Positions 26,083-38,582 are shown, counted from the stretch's first letter. The stretch is DNA of 64,000 bases from an uncultured Acidimicrobiaceae bacterium (GCA_963704585.1 OY969919.1:2617621-2681620), one strand, 5' to 3'. Translations and numbers: made by a program. The notes: generated by a model not told the origin, from the letters alone.

Positions 26083-27072
26083 CTACGAGTCGAGGATCTT
26101 GTCGATCGCCTCGAGCTCCCCGGGTTCGAAGTCGAGCCGGTCGAGCGTCGCGAGATTCTGGTCGAGCTGGGCGAGGCTGCTCGCCCCGACCAGCGTCGAC
26201 GTCACCCGCGGATCGCGGAGCGTCCAGGCGAGGGCCATCTGCGCGAGCGACTGGCCGCGGCCCCGCGCGAGCTCGTGGAGGGCGCGCACCCTGGCGAGGG
26301 TGGCCTCGTTGAGCTCACCGCGGTCGAGGGTGTCGGAGGTGTTGGCACGTGAGTCGGCCGGTATCCCGTCGAGGTAGCGGTCGGTGAGGATCCCCTGCGA
26401 GAGCGGCGAGTAGACGATGCAGCCCGCGCCGGCCTCGGCGATCGCGTCGAGGGTGCCGTGCTCGATCCAGCGGTTGAGCATGGAGTAGGGGGGCTGGTGA
26501 ATGAGCAGCGGCGTGCCGTGCTCGGCCAGGATGGCCGCGGCCTTCGCAGTCTGTTCCGGCGGGTACGACGAGATGCCCGCGTACAGGGCTTTGCCCTGCC
26601 GGACCGCGGTCGCCAGAGCGCCCATCGTCTCCTTCATCGGTGTGAACGGGTCGAAGCAGTGCGAGTAGAAGATGTCGACGTACTCGAGCTGCAGGCGTCG
26701 GAGGCTCGCATCGAGGCTCGCGAGGAGGTACTTGCGCGAGCCTCCCTCGCCGTACGGCCCCGGCCACATGTCGTAACCCGCCTTCGTCGAGACGATGATC
26801 TCGTCCCGGTACGGCGCGAGGTGTCCGCGGAACGCACTGCCGAAGTTGGTCTCCGCCGCTCCGGGGGGAGGTCCGTAGTTGTTGGCCAGGTCGAAGTGGG
26901 TGACGCCGCGGTCGAAGGCACGGGTGAGCATCGCCCCGACCTCCCGGGCATCGCGTGCGTCGCCGAAGTTCTGCCAGAGCCCGAGCGAAACGAGCGGGAG
27001 CTTGAGCCCGCTCCGTCCGCACCGTCGGTACTCCATGCGCTCGTAGCGGTCGCCTGCTGCGGTGTGGGTCAT
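26083..27072 (-). CDS. Aldo/keto reductase (YghZ / L-glyceraldehyde-3-phosphate reductase-like)
   Basis: GVTHFDLANNYG, STKAGYDMWPGPYGEGGSRKYL, YVDIFYSH. 329 aa. Confidence 0.9.
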   Translation of the reverse strand: MTHTAAGDRYERMEYRRCGRSGLKLPLVSLGLWQNFGDARDAREVGAMLTRAFDRGVTHFDLANNYGPPPGAAETNFGSAFRGHLAPYRDEIIVSTKAGYDMWPGPYGEGGSRKYLLASLDASLRRLQLEYVDIFYSHCFDPFTPMKETMGALATAVRQGKALYAGISSYPPEQTAKAAAILAEHGTPLLIHQPPYSMLNRWIEHGTLDAIAEAGAGCIVYSPLSQGILTDRYLDGIPADSRANTSDTLDRGELNEATLARVRALHELARGRGQSLAQMALAWTLRDPRVTSTLVGASSLAQLDQNLATLDRLDFEPGELEAIDKILDS

Positions 27073-27271
27073 GCGGCAACCCTATTGAAGAACCCGGCGC
27101 ACGATCCCGTGAGGCGGTATGCCTGCGCCGGCAGAGCGGGCGGCAGTGCCGCTGTGGCCGACCCGGCGCGGCGGTGCCGTCGGGACCGCCCTGGCATAGA
27201 GTCTGCGGCGACGTGACCGGGTCCGCGCGTCTCTGGACGGGGGACGGGGATCCGGTGGGGGAGGTGGGCTC

Positions 27272-28345
27272 GTGGGCGAAGTGCCCGAAGTGATGCCGGT
27301 GGCCGTCTACCAGCGGCCGGGGGAGGTCGCCGTCGAGGAGCGACCGGTCCCGATGCCCGGTCAGGGTCAGCTGCTCGTGCGGGTCGACCACTGCGGCATC
27401 TGCGGCTCCGACATCCACCTGCTCCTCGAGGGGTGGGCGGGCAAGCCTGGTCTGATCGCCGGCCACGAGTTCAGCGGATCGATCGCCGCCCTCGGACCGG
27501 GCGTCTCCGGCTGGGCGGTCGGCGAGCCGGTGCTCGGCGGCCCGTCGCCCAAGTGCGGGCACTGCCGGCGCTGCCTCGAGGGGAAGCCCTCGCAGTGCGA
27601 GAACCGCAACAGCACCATCGTCGACGGCGAGGACGGCGCCTTCGCCGGCTACGTGCTGGTCCGCGAGACGGCACTGCTCCGCATGCCGGAGGGGATGAGC
27701 AGCAGGACCGCCGCACTCGCCGAGCCGCTCGCCGTCGCGCTCCACGGGATCAACCGTTCCGGGGTGGCCGAGGGGGATCGCGTCATGGTGATGGGCGCCG
27801 GGCCCATCGGCGCGCTCTCGATCGCGGCCCTCGCAGCGCGTGGGATCGGCCCGATCCTCGCGGTGGAGCCGGGGGAGCGGCGCAGGCAGCTCGCGAAGGA
27901 CCTCGGCGCGAGCGAGGTCCTCGACCCCGCCGAGCTCGAGGTCTTCCCGCCGTGGGAGCCCGAGCGGCTCGCGTCGCGGGGAGTCCACGTCGTCCTCGAG
28001 TGCTCGGGCAAGAAGCCGGCCATGGAGGCCGGCTTCAATCAGCTGCTGCGCGGCGGGACGCTCGCCCTCGTCGGTGCCGGAATGGAGGCTCCGACCTTCG
28101 ACCCCAACCGATTCCTCCTGAACGAGCTCTCGGTGGTCGGCTCGTTCATCTACGACAAGGGCGGCTTCGAGGCGGCGCTCGAGCTGCTCGCCACGGACGA
28201 CTTCCCGAGCGACCTGCTGCTCGAGGCCGAGGATGTGCCGCTCGACCGACTCTCGGAGGCGCTCGCCGACCTCGCGTCCGGCCGGCTCGGCGGCAAGGTG
28301 CTCGTCGTGCCCCGGCTCGCAGCCGACGGACCACGGAGGAATTGA
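27272..28345 (+). CDS. Zinc-binding alcohol dehydrogenase family (MDR) protein
   Basis: CGICGSDIH and GHEFSG catalytic Zn motifs, CGHCRRCLEGKPSQC structural Zn motif, MGAGPIG Rossmann motif. Confidence 0.9.
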   Translation: MGEVPEVMPVAVYQRPGEVAVEERPVPMPGQGQLLVRVDHCGICGSDIHLLLEGWAGKPGLIAGHEFSGSIAALGPGVSGWAVGEPVLGGPSPKCGHCRRCLEGKPSQCENRNSTIVDGEDGAFAGYVLVRETALLRMPEGMSSRTAALAEPLAVALHGINRSGVAEGDRVMVMGAGPIGALSIAALAARGIGPILAVEPGERRRQLAKDLGASEVLDPAELEVFPPWEPERLASRGVHVVLECSGKKPAMEAGFNQLLRGGTLALVGAGMEAPTFDPNRFLLNELSVVGSFIYDKGGFEAALELLATDDFPSDLLLEAEDVPLDRLSEALADLASGRLGGKVLVVPRLAADGPRRN

Positions 28346-28791
28346 TGGCCCACACCCTCTACCCGAGCGGGATCCCCCGCTTCAACCACGTCGCGATGAG
28401 CCTGCCGGCCGACGCGCTCGATGCCGCGCACCGGGCCGACCTCTGCCGGTTCTGGCACGACGTCTTCGGCTTCGACGAGCTCGAGATGCTGACCGAGGAT
28501 CGCCGGCGTCTCGTGCTGTCCTGCGTCCACTGGGACCAGTTCATCTTCCTCGCAGCGGAGGACGTGCCGATGCGCTGCCCGCGGCTCGACCACTTCGGCT
28601 TTTCGGTGGGGTCGCTCGCCGAGCTGGAGGGCTTGCAGGAGCGCATCGCCGCCTATCGCGAGCACGACGACCGGGTCGACCTCATCGACCTGCACGTCGA
28701 CGACCAGAAGGTGGTCAAGATCCACTCGCTCTATGTTCGGTACCTCCTCCCCATGATGTGCGAGGTGCAGTGGTGGGAGTTCGTCAAATGA
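28345..28791 (+). CDS. VOC-like protein
   Basis: ATGA overlap with the ADH stop. IPRFNHVAMSL… and LDHFGFSV are consistent with a glyoxalase-fold duplication. Confidence 0.6.
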   Translation: MAHTLYPSGIPRFNHVAMSLPADALDAAHRADLCRFWHDVFGFDELEMLTEDRRRLVLSCVHWDQFIFLAAEDVPMRCPRLDHFGFSVGSLAELEGLQERIAAYREHDDRVDLIDLHVDDQKVVKIHSLYVRYLLPMMCEVQWWEFVK

Positions 28792-29783
28792 GCGCGCGGC
28801 CGTCGGGACGACTCCAGCTCGGGGTCTTCGTGCCCCAGGGCTGGAAGCTCGAGTACACCGGGTGGAGCGGCCCTGACGCGTGGGCGCGTTCGGTCGAGCT
28901 CGCACAGCTCGCCGAGGCGCTCGGCTACGACCACCTCTGGGTCTACGACCATGTCGAGACCGTGCCGCGTCGCGAGCCGTCCCACGTCTTCGAGGCGTTC
29001 ACCATGCTCGCCGCGCTCTCGCAGCGCACCTCGAGCGTCGGACTGGGCCAGCTCGTCACCTGCTCGTCGTACCGGAACGCCGGGCTCCTCGCGAAGGAAG
29101 CCGCGTGCATCGACGTCTTCTCGGGCGGCCGCGTGATCCTCGGGCTCGGCGCCGGCTGGTACCACGAGGAGTACGGCGCCTACGGCTACGAGTACCTCCC
29201 GGACCCGGTCCGGCTCGCGGTGCTCGACGAGACCCTCGACGCGGTGCAGCGCCTCTGGACCGAGGAGACCGTGACCCTCGACGGCGCGCACGTGCAGCTG
29301 CGCGGCGCGTTCTGCGATCCGAAACCGGTCCAGAACCTCCCGCCGCTCCTCGTCGGCGGCGGTGGGGAGCGGGTCAACCTCCGCATCGCGGCCCGCCGGG
29401 CGGACCTCACCAACTGGCAGGTCGGGCTCGAGTCCTTCGTGCGCAAGTCGGAGCTGCTCGCCCGGTACTGCGACGAGATCGGCCGGCCGTTCGAGGAGAT
29501 CGTGCGGACCCACGGTCCGGACTGCCGCATCTTCGACACCGAGGCGGAGGCGGTCGCCTGGTGCGAGACCGAGGACGGCGGCCACCTCTGGGGCGGCACG
29601 CCGACGGAGGACTACCTCGCGGAGAACTTCGTCGGAACGGTCGAACAGGTCATCGACAAGACGCAGGCATTCGTCGACGCGGGCTGCGGCGGCCTCATCC
29701 TCTGGCTTCGCGACTACCCGAGCGACGAGACGCTCCGGCGGTTCGTCGCAGAAGTGGTCCCCGCCCTCAAGCTCCCGAGCTGA
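28788..29783 (+). CDS. LLM class (luciferase-like) oxidoreductase, probably F420-dependent Rv1855c-type
   Basis: ATGA overlap with the previous gene. LGVFVPQGWKLEY…LWVYDH…LGLGAGWYHEEY pattern. Confidence 0.85.
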   Translation: MSARPSGRLQLGVFVPQGWKLEYTGWSGPDAWARSVELAQLAEALGYDHLWVYDHVETVPRREPSHVFEAFTMLAALSQRTSSVGLGQLVTCSSYRNAGLLAKEAACIDVFSGGRVILGLGAGWYHEEYGAYGYEYLPDPVRLAVLDETLDAVQRLWTEETVTLDGAHVQLRGAFCDPKPVQNLPPLLVGGGGERVNLRIAARRADLTNWQVGLESFVRKSELLARYCDEIGRPFEEIVRTHGPDCRIFDTEAEAVAWCETEDGGHLWGGTPTEDYLAENFVGTVEQVIDKTQAFVDAGCGGLILWLRDYPSDETLRRFVAEVVPALKLPS

Positions 29784-29828
29784 TCGCCAGTCGCTTCCGC
29801 CGGCGCGGGCACCGATCGGCGCGGGTGT

Positions 29829-31463
29829 TCACTTGTGGTGCACCCCGAGCTCGATGGCCTTGACGAGGAGCAGGAGCACGGCGACGACCAGGTAGCCGCG
29901 CAGGAGGTACATGCCGATGAGGCGGCCGCGCGACCAGGTCGGTCGCTCGAGGAGGGCGAGCGAGGGCATGCGCCAGTTGGCGCGCTGCTCTCTTGAGACC
30001 GCCGGTACGGGCTCACGGCGCGACCGCTGCCGCACGAGGGCGATGCCGCCGATCAGGTAGCCGACGACGAGCACCCCGCCGAGCACGACAGAGAGGACCC
30101 GCACGTTGACCTGGCTGAAGAGCGTCGTCGCCATGAGGACGAGCGACATCATGAGCAGCACGGTCACGATGACGGTCGCCAGCACGTTGAGCCACGTCCG
30201 GTTGACCCACGGTCCGAGGACCTCCTTGTCGTTGCAGAGCAGGAGGAGGAAGACCGTCGCGCTGGGCAGGAGCACGCCGGCCAGCGCCTGGACGGCCGTT
30301 GTGATGAGGCCGAGCGGCGCACCGGGGATCAGCACGATGCCGGCGGCGACCACCACCATCGAGGCGAACGCGCCGTAGAAGAACTTGGCCTCGCGCCAGC
30401 TGCGGTGCAGCGAGTGGCGCATGCCGAAGATGTCCCCGAAGGCGTAGGAGGTCGCAAGCGTGACCGATGCCGCGCCGATGATCGACGCGTTGAGCAGGAC
30501 GATGGCGAAGAGCGCCCCGGCGGCGTGCCCGACGGTGCTGTCGAGGCCGCTCGCGACGCCACCGGCGTTGGTGAAATGCCCGGCGAACGTCGTGCCGCCG
30601 AAGGCGGCGGCCGTGACGGCCATGAGCAGTGAAGCGGCGAAGACGGTGATCAGCGATCCGATCACGGTGTCGGCGCGCTCGTAGTTGATCCAGCGGGGGG
30701 TGATCCGCTTGTCGACGATGTTCGACTGCTGGAAGAAGAGCTGCCACGGTGCCACGGTCGTCCCGACGATGGCGATGACGAGCAGCACCGAGGTCGAGGT
30801 GAACCCGCCCTGCACGCCCGGAGTCGCGAGATGGTGGAGGAAGTCTCCGGCAGACGGGTGGCTGAAGACGGCGAGCGGGATCACGAGGAAGTTGGCGAAG
30901 ATGAACACGAACATGAACCGCTCCCACCGCCGGAAGCTGCCTGTCGCGGTCATGGCGACGAGCGCGAACGCGGCGATGGGGACCGAGACGTACTGGCTCA
31001 CGCCGAAGTAGCCGAGGGCGAGGCTCACCCCGATGAACTCCGTCGCGATGGTCAAGAAGTTGAGGATGAACAGGTCGCCGACGGAGAAGGCCCCCCAGAA
31101 GGTGCCGAAGCGCTCGTTGATGAGGCGCGCGTGGCCCACCCCGGTGACCGCGCCGAGGCGGACGACCATCTCCTGGTTCACGATGAGCACCGGTACGAGC
31201 AGCGGGAGCGTCCACAGGAGGGTGAGCCCGTAGTTCTGACCGGCCTGTGCATAGGTCGAGACGCCACCGGCGTCGTTGTCCCCGATCATCACGATGAGGC
31301 CCGGACCCATGATCGCGAGCAGGGTCAGCGCGCGGGCTCCCCAGCTGCGGCGCACGCCGACGTCGTGCTGGCGGATCGTCCCGAACGCGCCCCGGATGTC
31401 GCCGAGGTGCGCCTCGTCGAGCACCGCGGACGACGGCTCGGATGAGGCGATCTGCTCGTCCAC
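29829..31463 (-). CDS. NRAMP-family transporter with NRMT-type (Mg2+) binding-site substitutions
   Basis: NRAMP fold throughout. TM1 reads GDNDAGGVSTY where canonical transporters have DPGN. TM6 reads GTTVAPWQLFF where canonical transporters have GAxVMPH. GTG 31463 follows AAGGAGGTG. Extra C-terminal helix. Confidence 0.8.
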   Translation of the reverse strand: MDEQIASSEPSSAVLDEAHLGDIRGAFGTIRQHDVGVRRSWGARALTLLAIMGPGLIVMIGDNDAGGVSTYAQAGQNYGLTLLWTLPLLVPVLIVNQEMVVRLGAVTGVGHARLINERFGTFWGAFSVGDLFILNFLTIATEFIGVSLALGYFGVSQYVSVPIAAFALVAMTATGSFRRWERFMFVFIFANFLVIPLAVFSHPSAGDFLHHLATPGVQGGFTSTSVLLVIAIVGTTVAPWQLFFQQSNIVDKRITPRWINYERADTVIGSLITVFAASLLMAVTAAAFGGTTFAGHFTNAGGVASGLDSTVGHAAGALFAIVLLNASIIGAASVTLATSYAFGDIFGMRHSLHRSWREAKFFYGAFASMVVVAAGIVLIPGAPLGLITTAVQALAGVLLPSATVFLLLLCNDKEVLGPWVNRTWLNVLATVIVTVLLMMSLVLMATTLFSQVNVRVLSVVLGGVLVVGYLIGGIALVRQRSRREPVPAVSREQRANWRMPSLALLERPTWSRGRLIGMYLLRGYLVVAVLLLLVKAIELGVHHK

Positions 31464-31690
31464 GGGGCTCACCTCCTTCGTTCGGGCGGGGGACGGTGCT
31501 CGGGGCAGGCGCCATGCCGGGGCCGTGTCCGATCCGGCGGGCCCGGCGAGCGTGGATGGAAGGGGCACCGGCACGGCGGGGCACCTGTGGTGGGGGACGT
31601 CGCGGCAGCGAAGCCGTCGCGGTCCGCCGTGCGCACGTGCGCGAGGTCAGAGCGGATCGTCGCTGGCGGGTTTTCGCTCGCGCCGCACCG

Positions 31691-32980
31691 TCAGTCCTCG
31701 ACCGACGACGTGCCGAAGTCGCGCCGCCATCCCGTCGGGAGGAGGAGCTCGAGGACGTCGTCGACCGTGACGACGCCCAGGATCCGCTGGTGGTGCGCGT
31801 CGAGCACCGGGGCCACGACGAGATTGAAGTCGGACATCTTGCGGGCCGTGGCACCGAGGTCCCAGTCCGGGTGGACGTGGGGCGGGTCGTGGTCGAGCAC
31901 CGCGTCGAGCTCGTCGGAGGGGCTCGCCTTGATGAGGGTGACGGCCGGCGCGGAGCCGCTCACGTGGTCGTTGTCGTCGAGCGCGAACACGACGTTGAGC
32001 GTCTCGACCGGTGCGGTGCTCCGCTGGACGGCCTGGAGCGCAGCTCCGACCGACAGTGAGCCGGGAACGCAGAGGAAGTCCGGGCTCATGAGGCCCCCTG
32101 CGGTCTCGGGGTTGTAGCTGAGCAGCGAGCGGATCTTGCGTCGCTTCGGCTCCGGGACCAGCTCGAGGATGGGAAGGCGACGTTCCTGGTCGACCTCGGT
32201 GATCAGGTCGGCGGCGTCGTCGGGGGCCATCGACGCGAGGAGGCGCGCGGCTTCGCGGTCCGGTCGCGAGTGAAGGAACTCGACCTGGTGCTCGGTGTCC
32301 AGCTCCTCGAAGACGTCGGCCTCGAGCTCGACGTTCTCACCGACCGCCTCGATGATCTCCTCGCCCTCCTCGTGGGACGCCGCCTCGACGAGATCGGCGA
32401 TCTGGGCGGGGTGGAGCTTGGCGAGCTTGCGGTAGGGGATCCGCAGTCGCGACGACGGGACGTGCGAGACGAACGGCTCGATGCTCGCCCAGTCGACGAC
32501 CGGTCCCGATGGCGCCTTGCGGCCCAGTCGACCGGGAAGGAAGCGCTGGCGCAGGGGATGGCTGGAGGGGTCGACGCCGACCACCTCCCAGGTCCCGTCC
32601 ACGTTCGCGAGCTCGATCTCGTTCGCCCGGATCAGCCGCCCACCGACGAAGTTGATGAGGTGGTGCGCCAGCAGGTCCCGTGCGAGCAGGAGCTCGCCGG
32701 GGCGTCGCTCGAAGCGCCGGAGGTCGACGCGCCGGCCGTCGAAGAGCACCCGGCCGCGCTCGAATCGTGCGACCTTGCGGATCGGGACGAAGAGGTCGCG
32801 GCCGCCGATCCTCACCACCAGTCCGACCACCGGGGGATGGGGACGGTCGCCGAGCCGGACGATCAGGTCCTCGACGCGACCGATCCGGTCGCCGGCGCGG
32901 TCGACCAGCGGGCGCTTGATCGCGTTCGAGAGGTGGAGGATCTCGACGTCCTGCTCGGCCGCGACCTCGTGCGCAGTCAT
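31691..32980 (-). CDS. Soluble MgtE-like protein: PRC-barrel-like N-terminus + MgtE N-domain + tandem CBS, no membrane pore
   Basis: HPAQIADLVEAASHEEGEEIIEAV…EADVFEELD…AARLLASMAPDDAADLI is MgtE_N-like. Two CBS-like units follow and the protein ends at …TGWRRDFGTSSVED with no hydrophobic helices. Confidence 0.78.
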   Translation of the reverse strand: MTAHEVAAEQDVEILHLSNAIKRPLVDRAGDRIGRVEDLIVRLGDRPHPPVVGLVVRIGGRDLFVPIRKVARFERGRVLFDGRRVDLRRFERRPGELLLARDLLAHHLINFVGGRLIRANEIELANVDGTWEVVGVDPSSHPLRQRFLPGRLGRKAPSGPVVDWASIEPFVSHVPSSRLRIPYRKLAKLHPAQIADLVEAASHEEGEEIIEAVGENVELEADVFEELDTEHQVEFLHSRPDREAARLLASMAPDDAADLITEVDQERRLPILELVPEPKRRKIRSLLSYNPETAGGLMSPDFLCVPGSLSVGAALQAVQRSTAPVETLNVVFALDDNDHVSGSAPAVTLIKASPSDELDAVLDHDPPHVHPDWDLGATARKMSDFNLVVAPVLDAHHQRILGVVTVDDVLELLLPTGWRRDFGTSSVED

Positions 32981-33051
32981 CGGTCTCCCACCGTAGTCGT
33001 CGTCGATCCGTCCTCCGCGGTGCGACACCGACCGGGGTTCGGGAGCCGTGG

Positions 33052-34917
33052 TCAGTCCGCGAGCGTCCCGGTCCCCTCGGGGGTGCGAATCGGGAGTGGC
33101 ACCCGGGCGACGACCACGTCGGGCCGGCGGTGGAGCTGCGCGGTGAGCGCGAGGTCGACCTGATTGTGGAGGAGCCGGTACCGGAAGTGCTCCGGGATCA
33201 CGACGGGGATCAGGACGACGACCTGCCGGTCCCCCTGCATGCGGAGCTCGTCGACGACCCCGAGGATCGGCTCGACGATCGAGGCGTACTCGGTGTGCAG
33301 GACCCGGAGCGGGACGCCGGGATCCCACTCCCGCCACTGAGCCTCCACGTCGGGTGGCCGGTCCTGCGCGGGCACGCCGTCGATGACGACGGTCACGGCG
33401 AGGACGTCGTCGCCGAGGGAGATCGCCTCGGTCAGCGCGTGGTGGGTCATGCGTGAGACGGACGTCACCGGGACGAGCACGATCGTCCGCTTGCGATGGA
33501 GGGGCGGCTGCGTGGTGCCTACTCCGAGCTCCTGTGCGGAGCGCGAGTAGTACGCCTCGATCCGGTTGAAGAGCAGGATCAGCAATGGAATGGCGACGAC
33601 GACGACCCAGGCACCCTCGACGAACTTGGTCACGAGGAAGATGACGGTTGCGAGGGCCGTGACGACGGCGCCCGTTCCGTTGACGATCGCGCGCCGGGTC
33701 CAGCCCGGCTCCCTCGTCCGGCGCCAGTGGACGACCAGTCCGGCCTGCGAGAGCGTGAACCCGGTGAAGACGCCGATCGCGAACAGCGGGATGAGCGTGT
33801 TGGTGTTGCCCCCGACTGCGACGAGCAGGATCGCCGAGAAGACCGTCAGCGCCAGGATCCCGTTGCCGAACACCAGCCGCCGGTCGCGCAGGCCGAAGAA
33901 GTGCGGCAGGCAGTTGTCGCGTGAGAGCAGGCTCGTGAGAACGGGCAGGCCGCCGAACGAGGTGTTGGCCGCGAGCGCGAGGACGAGGGTGATCGTGATC
34001 GACACGAGGTAGTAGGCCCAATGGCGCCCGACCGCCTCGGCCATGATCTGGCTGAGCACCGTCTCGTTCGAGCGGGGCTGGATGTGGAACTTGTTGGTGA
34101 GGACGGCGAGACCGAGCAGCATCGTGCCGAGGATCACGCCGAGGAGCAGTTCCGTCCGCTTCGCTCGTTGGACGCGAGGCTCCCTGAACAGCGGCACGCC
34201 GTTCGCGATCGCCTCGACGCCGGTGAGCGCGCTGCACCCCGCCGAGAATGCCTTGAGCACGAGCAGGATGCCGACGGCCTCGAGCGGATGGGTGGCGACC
34301 ACCGACGCGCCGGCAGGCGGTGTGCCGGCTCCGAATGGATGGACGAGGCCGACCGCGATGATCGCGAGGAGGCCCACGATGAACACCATGGTCGGAAGGA
34401 GGAATGCCCGGGCACCCTCACCGAGCCCGCGGAGGTTGAGCGCGGTGATCACGAGCAGGATCCCGATGCAGATGGGGACCGTGTACGGCGCCGTCGACGG
34501 GAAGGCGGACGAGAGCTGCCCGACGCCCGCGGCGATCGAGACCGCAACGGTCAGCGTGTAGTCCACGATGAGCGCCCCGCCGGCGAGCTTGCTCACCGCG
34601 GCTCCGAAGTTGTCGCGCGTGACCGCGTAGGCACCGCCTCCGTGCGGGTACGCATCGATCACCTGGCGGTAGGAGATCACGAGGATCGTGAGCAGCCCGA
34701 TGATGGCGATCGTGATCGGGAGGATGAGGTGCAGCGCGGTCGCACCCGCCGCAGCGAGCACGACCAGGATGGCCTCCGGTCCATACGCGACCGAGGTCAG
34801 CGCGTCGAGGGAGAGCGCTGAGAGCCCTTCGACCGGTGTGATCTCCTCGCTTGCGGCTTCGCTGGTCGACAGCGCGTGGCCGAAGAGGATCCGCTGCACC
34901 CTCCGGGTCGTACTCAT
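33052..34917 (-). CDS. APC superfamily permease with C-terminal cytosolic domain
   Basis: 12 TM helices ([17 protein letters not shown]… motif) plus an about 170-aa soluble tail. Start taken at ATG 34917. Confidence 0.85.
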
Positions 34918-35041
34918 CGGGACGGGCGCGACCGGCACGCGATGAGTGGCATCGGCACCGGAGTCTACGAGTGGCTCAACGCGCGGACGCGGCACGTCCG
35001 GGCACGCCTCCCCGTCGAGCTCGGCCGGTTCGAGCTCCGAC

Positions 35042-35071
35042 TTGTTGGACGGATTTTGCGCACCGTAGGGT
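35042..35071 (+). promoter_or_regulatory. Possible promoter of cysK (TTGTTG-N18-TAGGGT)
   Basis: TANNNT-type -10 hexamer 39 nt upstream of the cysK ATG. Pattern match only. Confidence 0.25.
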
Positions 35072-35109
35072 CTTCACGTCGGAACAGGCTCGTGAAGGGT
35101 GTGACGATC

Positions 35110-36042
35110 ATGAAGATCGCGGACGACATCACCCAGCTCATCGGCAATACGCCGCTCGTCCGGCTCCGCCGACTGACCGAAGGGCTCGGCGCCGACGTGG
35201 TTGCGAAGCTCGAGTACTTCAATCCCGCGCACAGTGTGAAGGATCGGATCGGCGTCGCAATGATCGACGCGGCCGAGGAAGCCGGCTTCATCGGGCCCAA
35301 CACGATCGTCCTCGAGCCGACCAGCGGCAACACCGGTATCGCACTCGCCATGGTGTGCGCAGCGCGGGGCTACCCGTGCGTGTTCACCATGCCCGAGACG
35401 ATGAGCAAGGAACGCCGCGCGCTGCTGCGTGGGTACGGCGCCGAGCTCGTCCTCACGCCGGGGCCGGACGGTATGGCCGGCGCGATCGCGAAGGCGGAGG
35501 AGCTCGCGAAGAGCGACTCCCGGTACTTCGTCCCGCAGCAGTTCGAGAACCCTGCGAACCCTGCGATCCACCGGAGGACCACCGCCGAGGAGATCTGGCG
35601 CGACACCGACGGCGGCGTCGATGCCGTCGTGGCCGGCGTCGGAACCGGTGGGACGATCAGTGGCGTCGGCGAGGTTCTGAAGGAGCGCAAGCCGTCGGTG
35701 CGGATGGTGGCCGTCGAGCCCGCGGCGTCACCCGTCCTCTCGGGAGGTCAGAAGGGTCCGCATCCCATCCAGGGGATCGGCGCGGGATTCGTTCCGTCAA
35801 TCCTCGACACGTCGGTGATGGACGAGGTCGTCACCGTCGAGAACGACGACGCCTTCGAGTACGCGCGCCGGGCGGCGCGCGAAGAGGGGCTGCTGGTCGG
35901 CATCTCCTCTGGCGCCGCGATCTGGGCCGCGCTGCAGGTCGCCGCGCGACCCGAGAGCGCGGGGAAGCTGATCGTCGTGATCGTGCCCTCCTTCGGCGAG
36001 CGGTATCTGTCCACCCCGCTCTTCGCCGGCCTGGTCGACTGA
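35110..36042 (+). CDS. cysK: Cysteine synthase A (O-acetylserine sulfhydrylase)
   Basis: [11 protein letters not shown] (PLP lysine), [20 protein letters not shown]. Confidence 0.93.
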
Positions 36043-36044
36043 GC

Positions 36045-36746
36045 GTGCTCGCGACGCTGCGGAGCGATCTGGAGGCGGCCCGCAGTCGCGATCCGGCGGC
36101 GAGGTCCAGCTTCGAGATCGCCCTTTGCTACCCGGGTGTGCACGCGGTCTGGAGCCACCGCGTCGCCCACCGGCTGTGGTCCAGCGGCTGGAGACTGGCG
36201 GCGCGCTTCTGTTCCGCGGCGACGCGGGTGGTGACCGGGGTCGACATCCATCCCGCCGCGCGTCTGGGCCCGGGGCTCTTCATCGATCACGCGACCGGTG
36301 TCGTCATCGGTGAGACCACCGAAATCGGGCGCGATGTGACCCTGTACCAGGGTGTCACTCTCGGTGGCACGAGCCTCGAGCGGGTCAAGCGCCATCCCAC
36401 GATCGGTGATCGGGTGACGATCGGCGCAGGTGCGAAGGTGCTCGGTCCGGTCACCGTGGGCGACGACAGCCGGATCGGCGCGAACGCGGTCGTGGTGAAG
36501 CCGGTGCCGCCGAACTCGGTGGTCGTCGGCGTGCCAGGACAGGTCATCGCACGGAGTCGCCCGAGGACCACCGACGCGCAGCCGGACCTCGACGGCACGC
36601 TCCTTCCCGACCTCATCGGGACGAGCCTCCAGGCGCTGCGCCGTCGGGTCGACCGGCTGGAGACGGCGGTCGAGGGAAGGTCCGCCGAACCCGAGGTGCG
36701 GCCGTCGGAGTCCGGCATCTGGCAGGGGGAGGACTTCTCGATCTGA
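36045..36746 (+). CDS. cysE: Serine O-acetyltransferase
   Basis: [31 protein letters not shown] hexapeptide repeats. GTG lies 3 nt after the cysK stop. Confidence 0.9.
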
Positions 36747-36995
36747 CGAGGCCGGTGCTGCCGGACGTTTCCGTCTAGCCAGGCGCGAGTGCTGTTCGAC
36801 ACTCAGAGTGCTTCTGTTGACACAGAAAGTGACCAAAGCCTCTGGTCCGCAGCGCGGGGAAGGCGCAAGGTCAGAGAAGAGAGGCAGCGAACCCTTCGGG
36901 GTGCACCGCCTCAGCAGGGAGCGATTCCGTTCGGACGCGAGGGCCACCTTTGACGCGAGCGCCGACGCGTCCTCAGCCGAAAGGGGCAGGTCGCC

Positions 36996-38582
36996 ATGGA
37001 ACGGACGCGGCAGTCAGTCGGTGGAGACGGACCGGAGCCGAGGCAGAAGCGATGGTCGGGTCACCGGATCGCGAGGTTGCGGCGCCGGCTGCGGTCCGTG
37101 TCGGTCTTCGGCCTGTCGCTACTGACTGTCGGCGCACTGTCGTTGCCGCTCCTGGCGACACCGGTGGTTGCTTCGGGACCCCCTCCGTCGGTGACCGCGG
37201 TCGTTGCGAACAGCGGTCCACTCTCGGGTGGGCAGCGGGTGACCGTCCTCGGCACCGGCCTCTCGAGCCCGACCGCGGTGCACTTCGGTCTCAATCTGGC
37301 CACCGTGCTGGCGAGCACGAACACGACGGTGACGGTGACGTCCCCGGTGGGGTCGGCAGGGACCGTTCACGTGTCTGTCACCACGTCAAACGGAACGAGC
37401 TCGTTGACGAGCGCCGACTTGTACAGGTATGTGCAGGTACCGAGTCTCTATGTGGCGGACTCTGGCCTAGACGAGATCACGCCAATCACCTTCGCAAGCC
37501 AGGTTCCGAGAGCTCCTATCGGCGTGGGTGGAACGCCGACAGCAATCGCGATCACACCGAACGGCTCGACGGCACTTGTAGTGGACAGTGGATCGGACGA
37601 CGTCACTCCAGTCGATCTACCAACGGGAAGTCCAAGCGCGTCAATTTCCGTCGGCAGTGATCCGACGGCGATCGCGATCACGCCGAATGGAGCGACCGCC
37701 TACGTGACGAACAGCGGATCGGGCACGGTTACCCCAATCGCGACCGCCTCTGGTACGGCGGGTACGCCGATCACCGTCGGGAGCGATCCAGCCGGCATCG
37801 CCATCACGCCAGACGGACAGACCGCGTACGTCGCGGTGAGAGGGACCGGACATGTCGTGCCGATCGCTCTGGGATCCGGCACGCCCGGGACACCGATCGC
37901 CGTCGGCAGCCAACCGACGGGGATCGCGATCACGCCCGACGGTGCCACGGTGTACGTGACGGATGCAGGTTCGAACCAGGTGACACCGATCACGGTCTCG
38001 AGTGGTGCTGCCGGCACGCCCATCGGTGTCGGTACGACCCCTGTTGGCATCGCCGTCACTCCGAGTGGCCGCACTGCATTCGTCACGAACAGCGGTTCGG
38101 ACAACGTCACGCCGATCGCCCTGCCGAGTGGCGCCGCCGGGACGCCGATCGGGGTGGGGAGTACTCCCATCGGAGTCGCGTTCACTCCCGACGGATTGAC
38201 TGCTTACGTGTCCGATTCGGGCGAGGACGACGTGACGCCCGTCACGGTCTCGACGGGGACCGCCGGAACGCCGATCGACGTGGGGAGCGTCCCGCAAGGT
38301 CTCGCAGTTAGCCCCGACCAGGCGCCGACGGCGTCATTCACAGCGGTTCCCGCCGTTCCCGGGTCTGCATCGACGTTCGACGCGTCGGCGTCCGGAGCCC
38401 CCGCTGGGACGATCGCCCAGTACGCATGGGACTTCGGAGACAGCAGCACCACCGTGACGAATTCTGCGACGGTGAGTCACACCTACCTGGCAGCTGGGCC
38501 AGTTCACAGCCGGCTTACGGTGACGGATTCGGCTGGTACATCGACGATCGACGACATTCGCAGGTCAAACCGTTTCGAATAG
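36996..38582 (+). CDS. Secreted protein: signal peptide + IPT/TIG + about 7 YVTN-type 42-aa beta-propeller repeats + PKD domain with a disrupted C-terminus
   Basis: Signal-like LSLLTVGALSLPLLATPVVASG. Repeats follow P(I/V)xxxxGxxGxPIxVGSxPxGIAITPDGxTAYVTNSGSxxVT. The PKD core is YAWDFGDSST…TVTDSAGTST. The expected continuation FAGQTVSNSGANVG is in the +1 frame. Confidence 0.8.
   Translation: MERTRQSVGGDGPEPRQKRWSGHRIARLRRRLRSVSVFGLSLLTVGALSLPLLATPVVASGPPPSVTAVVANSGPLSGGQRVTVLGTGLSSPTAVHFGLNLATVLASTNTTVTVTSPVGSAGTVHVSVTTSNGTSSLTSADLYRYVQVPSLYVADSGLDEITPITFASQVPRAPIGVGGTPTAIAITPNGSTALVVDSGSDDVTPVDLPTGSPSASISVGSDPTAIAITPNGATAYVTNSGSGTVTPIATASGTAGTPITVGSDPAGIAITPDGQTAYVAVRGTGHVVPIALGSGTPGTPIAVGSQPTGIAITPDGATVYVTDAGSNQVTPITVSSGAAGTPIGVGTTPVGIAVTPSGRTAFVTNSGSDNVTPIALPSGAAGTPIGVGSTPIGVAFTPDGLTAYVSDSGEDDVTPVTVSTGTAGTPIDVGSVPQGLAVSPDQAPTASFTAVPAVPGSASTFDASASGAPAGTIAQYAWDFGDSSTTVTNSATVSHTYLAAGPVHSRLTVTDSAGTSTIDDIRRSNRFE
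37480..38330 (+). repeat. Intragenic tandem repeat, period 126 nt (YVTN blades)
   Basis: Six full copies and one partial copy of the 42-aa unit are visible in the translation. Confidence 0.8.

Follow-up and report, generated by a model that had tools for sequence, protein, structure and literature searches.

Known NrmT systems and the locus under study

The name NrmT was introduced by Shin et al. (2014, PMC4072509) for NRAMP-related Mg2+ transporters, and two Clostridium genes of this kind gave Mg2+ complementation. Most NrmT genes are adjoined by a gene encoding an MgtE fragment, which usually lies immediately upstream, and it was proposed that this MgtE-like fragment exerts cytoplasmic feedback regulation in trans or else has metal-chaperone activity (PMC4072509). 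Only some NrmT/MgtE-fragment loci have an M-box Mg2+ riboswitch located upstream of the operon. Here we analyze a locus of this type in a stretch of 64,000 nucleotides (hereafter the window) from an uncultured Acidimicrobiaceae bacterium (GCA_963704585.1, OY969919.1:2617621-2681620). It consists of a gene for an NRAMP-family transporter, the carrier, and an upstream gene for an MgtE-like protein with no pore, the partner.

Two groups of earlier results are relevant for interpreting this locus. On the functional side, CabNRMT complements without a partner (PMC4072509), and the NrmT-group carrier of Acidobacterium capsulatum fully rescued a Mn2+-transport mutant, while a Mg2+-transport mutant was rescued only at millimolar Mg2+ (PMC4072509). 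On the structural side, EleNRMT is active in proteoliposomes, with no partner mentioned, and it transports Mg2+ and Mn2+ without coupling to H+ (PMC8806188). The signature of NRMTs has been defined as DxxG in helix 1 together with TxxA/T in helix 6, in place of DxxN and A/CxxM, and the histidines of the H+ pathway are lost in NRMTs (PMC8806188).

The first-pass annotation of the window, which was made by a model from the sequence alone, had recognized the pairing of a detached MgtE sensor with an unrelated carrier and had supposed that no example was described. This supposition was mistaken, since the pairing was published in 2014 (Shin et al., PMC4072509) and is common in bacteria. In the literature that we searched, no other paper links NrmT to the MgtE-like fragment.

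The carrier belongs to the NRMT clade

The carrier matches the Pfam Nramp profile (PF01566, E 7e-75) over positions 2-356 of 357, which indicates the SLC11/NRAMP fold. When all PDB sequences are considered, its best solved relative is EleNRMT (7QIA; 217.7 bits, E 2.5e-63), and chains outside the NRMTs, i.e., the Mn2+/Fe2+ NRAMPs of the MntH/DMT type, reach at most 70 bits (E 1e-16 to 1e-5). The carrier also scores far under the cut-offs of the NCBIfam MntH and Nramp models.

We placed the metal-site motifs using HMMER alignments of the carrier to solved structures, among them EleNRMT and the PDB chain 5M95_A, which we take to be ScaDMT. Because the helix-1 and helix-6 motifs align with those of both proteins (Table 1), the substitutions of Asn by Gly, Ala by Thr and Met by Ala that had been read from the sequence in the first-pass annotation are real, and both DAGG and TTVAP lie inside the metal site. 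The H+-pathway histidines of helix 6b are replaced, with W240 and Q245 corresponding to W229 and N234 of EleNRMT, and E142 and Q392 are kept, corresponding to E133 and Q379. Given the DxxG and TxxA signature and EleNRMT as nearest solved relative, the carrier is, by sequence, a member of the NRMT clade.

By analogy with EleNRMT, the carrier most likely imports Mg2+ plus Mn2+ as a uniporter that would be driven by the membrane potential and not coupled to H+. It is uncertain whether Mg2+ rather than Mn2+ would be its main substrate. The assignment to Mg2+ in the first-pass annotation is supported as far as the NRMT binding-site residues go, but it was overstated, as the A. capsulatum carrier acted mainly on Mn2+ and EleNRMT carries both ions.

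The carrier has about 13 predicted helices and so does not match the eleven of EleNRMT. Eleven helices are a description of EleNRMT and not a strict criterion for the NRMT clade, and we treat the carrier as a long-form variant. Its C-terminal extension, which is missing from EleNRMT and the other short forms, contains a predicted transmembrane helix (TM12, residues 459-477), a basic loop (478-515) with 10 Lys or Arg residues, and another predicted transmembrane helix (TM13, 516-534). The loop has the conserved motif W-R-M-P..L..L.RP.WSR.R, in which W497-R-M-P500 and R507-P..W-S-R512 are invariant. Alignment shows these roughly 100 extra C-terminal residues only in carriers at least 48% identical to that of the window. 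In an AlphaFold (AF2) model of low confidence, built from a shallow alignment (mean predicted local distance difference test score, pLDDT, 42.6) and used for secondary structure only, helices span residues 454-482 and 512-541. In 11-helix NRAMP structures, the C-terminus is outside the cell; because of this orientation and the positive-inside rule, the loop at residues 478-515 should face the cytoplasm.

The partner is an MgtE sensor module with a PRC barrel and no pore

In the partner, Pfam profiles identify an MgtE_N domain (PF03448, E 1e-20) and CBS domains (PF00571, E 7e-11), preceded by a PRC barrel (PF05239). The PRC match is marginal in the window's partner (21.4 bits versus a cut-off of 21.2) and clearer in its homologs. 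No Pfam match to the MgtE membrane domain, PF01769, was found in the partner, and the NCBIfam MgtE model TIGR00400 matches it over profile positions 26-251 of 450 only. Against the PDB, the partner aligns with residues 25-252 of the cytosolic domain of Thermus MgtE (about 228 residues, E 3.5e-23), and the top Foldseek matches of its AlphaFold model (mean pLDDT 70) are to the cytoplasmic domains of MgtE proteins (E 1e-14 to 1e-11). The protein stops 16 residues past the second CBS domain; no hydrophobic domain follows and the plug helix is absent. The architecture sketched in the first-pass annotation, with a PRC-barrel-like N-terminus, an MgtE N-domain, two CBS domains and no pore on one protein and an Nramp profile on the other, was thus recovered by profile searches, alignment to solved structures and modeling. 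Judged from these matches, the partner is a soluble homolog of the MgtE cytoplasmic module that has no MgtE channel, and it probably forms a dimer.

This architecture is general among the partners found in the two surveys described below, which are approximately 410-430 amino acids (aa) long. In ten diverse partners, the PRC profile matched every time (7 above the gathering score), and MgtE_N and CBS were found in all 10. We considered whether the PRC barrel is confined to partners of long-form carriers and forms a docking pair with them; this idea was rejected, as partners of short-form carriers have the PRC region in 39 of 41 uncut frames and the Pfam match in 10 of 10. By contrast, conservation of the LP.GWRR.FG tail is limited to those partners that accompany long-form carriers. 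Within the tail, P415, G417, R419, R420, D421 and G423 are invariant in the partner alignment, and F422 is nearly so.

We then compared the partner with the Mg2+ sites of MgtE. Ligand sites were taken from PMC5882242 and mapped through the alignment to 2YVY, in which the chain index minus 3 gives the native numbering; this offset was confirmed on E59, D91, D95, D226, D247 and D250. Conservation was counted over 114 partners from both surveys (Table 1). As judged by this alignment, the partner keeps the acidic ligands of Mg4, Mg6 and Mg7, along with one of the Mg5 ligands. In MgtE, mutating the corresponding sites abolishes Mg2+-dependent closure (PMC5882242).

The two genes are linked across several phyla

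The first-pass annotation had proposed a survey of gene neighborhoods, and two such surveys show that the linkage is conserved. In survey 1, species-representative genomes were scanned with an NRMT alignment, giving 80 loci with long-form carriers of 59-83% identity. These loci are from Acidimicrobiales, Solirubrobacterales, other Thermoleophilia, Streptomyces, Kitasatospora, Pseudonocardiaceae, Chloroflexota, Dormibacterota and Acidobacteriota. A locus was counted as informative if at least 1.3 kb of upstream sequence was available, which was true of 75. Of these 75 loci, 72 have the partner upstream and on the same strand; it is adjacent in 67, and an insert of 2-3 kb intervenes in 5. In survey 2, short-form NRMTs of 392-461 aa were aligned, and metagenome contigs were scanned with this alignment. 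Here, 45 of 52 informative loci have the partner directly upstream and on the same strand, one has it downstream on the other strand, and the partners are 22-36% identical to that of the window. Two look-ups centered on the partner also found Nramp as the next gene, immediately downstream. An exact look-up of the window's own partner on contigs gave no match, and an 83% identical protein (P0002) stood in for it there. Overall, the partner is present in roughly 90% of the sampled NRMT loci, in several phyla, and the adjacency of carrier and partner is far beyond chance.

In six loci from long-read metagenome-assembled genomes (L005, L014, L016, L038, L049 and L061), the partner gene appears to be split between frames, most likely because of frameshifts in the assembly and not because it is a pseudogene.

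We looked for regulatory elements in and around the spacer between the two genes. An Rfam scan of positions 27000-37500 (E at most 1) gave no M-box or other riboswitch, and returned only three unrelated weak matches. The 227-nucleotide (nt) spacer folds no better than shuffled sequence (z-score -0.48), and a scan for promoters and terminators found nothing above the shuffled expectation. Among the spacers of 16 related loci, a Shine-Dalgarno sequence is the sole common element and the rest is not conserved. In the long-form clade, the spacers are GC-rich and range from 22 to 604 nt, with a median of 278 nt; the reading frames of partner and carrier abut or overlap in many short-form loci. The long spacer of the long-form clade could mean that the carrier has a separate promoter or is differentially expressed.

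Proposed mechanism and alternative explanations

The identity of the two proteins as a carrier-partner module is a conclusion that we hold with high confidence. As an explanation of the locus as a whole, we somewhat favor a two-gene module for divalent-cation uptake of the Clostridium NrmT type, in which the partner would gate import. The more specific idea, that the partner senses cations and regulates the carrier in trans, is in our estimate close to evenly balanced. We arrive at it because the linkage is conserved, because the sensor residues are conserved and because the partner is dispensable for transport.

Such regulation could work as follows. As in MgtE, cytoplasmic Mg2+ would bind to the partner at acidic sites that lie between the N domain and the CBS domains, and the CBS pair of the partner may also bind a nucleotide. 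The resulting domain closure would alter the way in which the partner is docked to the carrier's cytoplasmic side, via the PRC barrel, the conserved linker and tail, or both, so that import would be throttled once the cell is replete with Mg2+. In the H subunit of the photosynthetic reaction center, the PRC barrel packs on the cytoplasmic face of the membrane subunits, and it is for this reason that we consider the PRC barrel a candidate docking element. Extending this reasoning, we tentatively suggest that PRC, MgtE_N and CBS domains make up a detachable gating module, responsive to Mg2+ and perhaps to nucleotides, in which the sensor of a channel has been re-used in trans for a carrier of the LeuT fold. 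It might dock by the PRC barrel, by the linker or by the tail, and in the long-form clade of actinobacteria and Chloroflexota, the carrier may have gained the hairpin formed by TM12, the loop and TM13, with the conserved basic loop as docking platform. This fuller version is speculative, and we would not presume it to be correct. In the literature searched, we found no description of a PRC domain in the partner, of the long-form carrier or its extension, or of an interaction between partner and carrier, and no paper that names both the PRC barrel and MgtE.

Several observations weigh against a partner that gates Mg2+ import. The partner is absent from the fetched sequence at 3 of the 75 informative loci of survey 1 (L037, L040 and L078) and at 6 of the 52 metagenome loci (L085, L092, L096, L097, L141 and L146). 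One Mg5 ligand is Asn instead of Asp, and the partner has no counterpart of the plug helix, which passes the signal on in MgtE, or of Mg2 and Mg3, so that any route of coupling lacks this element. Since the clade's spacer of about 280 nt is not conserved, co-transcription of the pair cannot be presumed, and without an M-box riboswitch, nothing of that kind ties the locus to Mg2+. In the one published test, made with the A. capsulatum pair, co-expression of the partner gave no added effect on Mg2+ rescue (PMC4072509). Finally, the proposed interaction of partner and carrier is deduced from linkage and sequence.

Alternatively, the module could be mainly an importer of Mn2+ or another transition metal, with a partner that senses Mn2+ or some other ligand in place of Mg2+. 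In A. capsulatum, the NrmT-group carrier, which also adjoins an MgtE-like gene and has no riboswitch, acted mainly on Mn2+ (PMC4072509), and EleNRMT transports Mn2+ besides Mg2+ (PMC8806188). The window's locus likewise has no M-box, and one related locus is situated amid transition-metal genes, for CDF efflux, an ArsR-type regulator and a P-type ATPase. However, the DxxG/TxxA set of the carrier is identical to that of EleNRMT, in which T224 is needed for Mg2+ transport, and the partner retains the acidic Mg2+ ligands of MgtE. We regard a module mainly for Mn2+ or another transition metal as possible but rather improbable.

The partner might also be no regulator at all, but a cytoplasmic chaperone or buffer for the imported metal ion, or an independent CBS/PRC signaling protein that is merely co-expressed with the carrier. 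Shin et al. themselves raised “metal chaperone activity”, and the lack of an effect of co-expression on rescue fits this idea (PMC4072509), as does the loss of the helix that couples the MgtE sensor to its pore. Yet same-strand adjacency persists across phyla even where partners share just 22-36% identity with that of the window, a persistence that points to a close functional tie. The conserved residues, moreover, form a low-affinity regulatory site and no site of the chaperone type. A role unconnected with regulation thus appears unlikely to us. It is harder still to maintain that the genes are functionally unrelated and adjacent by accident. A spacer of 227 nt and the lack of evidence for co-transcription in the window might be cited in its favor, but gene order and strand are kept in 72 of 75 and 45 of 52 loci, while other neighbors, such as the APC permease described below, vary. 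The linkage surveys effectively refute an accident of this kind, to which we assign almost no weight.

Features of the locus and neighboring genes

The features of the locus are collected in Table 1. Our gene calls reproduce the boundaries, the shared strand and the gap of the first-pass annotation. The window has a G+C content of about 70%. The nrmT gene starts with GTG at 31463, and the Shine-Dalgarno sequence GAAGGAGG lies 8 nt upstream, at 31472-31479. Homologs of the carrier in Acidimicrobiales are 540-550 aa long, 79-85% identical and alignable from residue 1, and homologs of the partner are likewise alignable from residue 1. For both proteins, the nearest homologs are in metagenome-assembled genomes of Acidimicrobiales.

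Table 1. Positions of features in the window, and residues of the partner that correspond to Mg2+ ligands of Thermus MgtE.
Feature	Position	Strand	Basis or observation
nrmT carrier gene, 544 aa	29829..31463, including stop codon	(-)	Open reading frame check, Pfam, PDB match
Carrier helix-1 metal-site motif, D64-A-G-G67 (DxxG replacing DPGN)	31263..31274	(-)	Aligns with EleNRMT D55-A-G-G58 and 5M95_A DPGN
Carrier helix-6 motif, T235-T-V-A238-P-W240 (TxxA)	30744..30761	(-)	Aligns with EleNRMT T224-T-I-A227-P-W229 and 5M95_A ATIMPH
Carrier C-terminal extension, residues 449-544	29832..30119	(-)	Alignment, hydropathy, charge counts
Intergenic spacer, 227 nt, with Shine-Dalgarno GAAGGAGG	31464..31690	(-)	Sequence
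Partner gene, 429 aa, ATG start	31691..32980	(-)	Pfam, PDB alignment, AF2 model, Foldseek, conserved linkage
Partner PRC-barrel domain, residues 16-83	32732..32935	(-)	Pfam; AF2 beta strands 13-80, pLDDT ~67-88
Partner second beta region, residues 96-135, following the PRC barrel			AF2 model
Partner linker, residues 136-182			AF2 model; highly conserved, poorly modeled
Partner MgtE_N helical domain, residues 189-291	32108..32416	(-)	Pfam; AF2 model 183-288
Partner CBS pair, residues 300-413	31742..32083	(-)	Pfam, PDB alignment, Foldseek; AF2 model 303-413
Partner C-terminal tail L-P-T-G-W-R-R-D-F-G, residues 414-423	31712..31741	(-)	Alignment; low-confidence model; occupies the place of the MgtE plug helix
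Partner D222 = MgtE E59 (Mg7)			Acidic in 108/114
Partner D254 = MgtE D91 (Mg4)			Asp in 102/114
Partner D258 = MgtE D95 (Mg6)			Asp in 114/114
Partner N386 = MgtE D226 (Mg5)			Mostly Asn in partners
Partner D408 = MgtE D247 (Mg4)			Asp in 104/114
Partner E411 = MgtE D250 (Mg5)			Acidic in 98/114

A gene for an APC-family permease of 647 aa (AA_permease_2, E 3.6e-30) occupies 33052..34995 on the minus strand, 71 nt upstream of the partner gene, and the C-terminal ~190 aa of this permease have no Pfam match. It was considered as a third component of the module and rejected, as its synteny is limited to the nearest relative (L001), and it is elsewhere or absent at other loci. In one related lineage (L163 and L164, 1-3965), the pair adjoins further metal-related genes, which encode a CDF cation-efflux protein, an ArsR/HTH_5 regulator and a P-type cation ATPase with a length of about 1500 aa.

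Divergent from the permease gene is a probable cysK-cysE pair on the plus strand (34876-36746). Its first open reading frame is identified by synteny with a PALP-domain gene in L001, and its second has hexapeptide-transferase repeats. Also on the plus strand, 36996-38582 encodes a protein of 528 aa in which a TIG/IPT domain is combined with beta-propeller repeats (matches of the Lactonase/NHL type) and a C-terminal PKD domain; it is probably secreted or on the cell surface, and is unrelated to the carrier-partner finding.

Comparison with known systems

As the pairing has been known since 2014, the locus in the window is a further example of it and adds no new principle. We did not find the following details described: the PRC-barrel domain at the N-terminus of all partners checked, the retention of ligands with loss of the plug helix, and the additional helices of the long-form carrier. 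The structural work on EleNRMT left the role of this MgtE-like gene aside. The surveys define the partner as a conserved protein of about 420 aa with PRC, MgtE_N and CBS domains and, because the protein pair is now well defined, the hypothesis of regulation in trans is directly testable. In addition, a subclade of long-form carriers can now be recognized, with candidate docking elements.

The closest described system is the NrmT module of Clostridium, which has the same kind of carrier, of the NRMT clade, directly downstream of a homolog of the MgtE cytoplasmic domain, and for which the same idea of a regulator in trans was put forward. It differs from the window's locus in several respects. 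The window's locus has no M-box riboswitch, its carrier is the long form with two extra C-terminal helices, and its host is a high-GC actinobacterium of the Acidimicrobiales type. The partner is split in two in C. acetobutylicum, whereas it is a single gene of 429 aa here. The text of Shin et al. (2014) mentions neither a PRC barrel nor CBS domains, both of which are present in the window's partner.

The pair Acp2976/Acp2977 of A. capsulatum is similar in that its carrier is of the NrmT group, an MgtE-like gene lies upstream and there is no riboswitch. It differs in that its carrier acted mainly on Mn2+ and no effect of its partner could be detected.

For the carrier alone, the best comparison is EleNRMT of Eggerthella lenta (7QIA and related structures; PMC8806188), whose metal-site residues D-A-G-G and T-T-x-A-P-W are identical. 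In the window's carrier, the equivalents of E133 and Q379 are likewise kept and the H+-pathway histidines likewise lost. EleNRMT has 438 aa and 11 helices, compared with 544 aa and about 13 predicted helices in the window's carrier, and it was characterized without a partner protein, while the window's carrier is known from its sequence.

For the partner, the comparison is with the cytosolic domain of Thermus thermophilus MgtE (2YVY, 2YVX), with which it shares the N domain, the CBS pair and the acidic ligands. Unlike MgtE, the partner is a separate polypeptide with neither plug helix nor pore, its equivalent of D226 is Asn, and its N-terminus is extended by about 185 aa, which comprise the PRC barrel and the linker.

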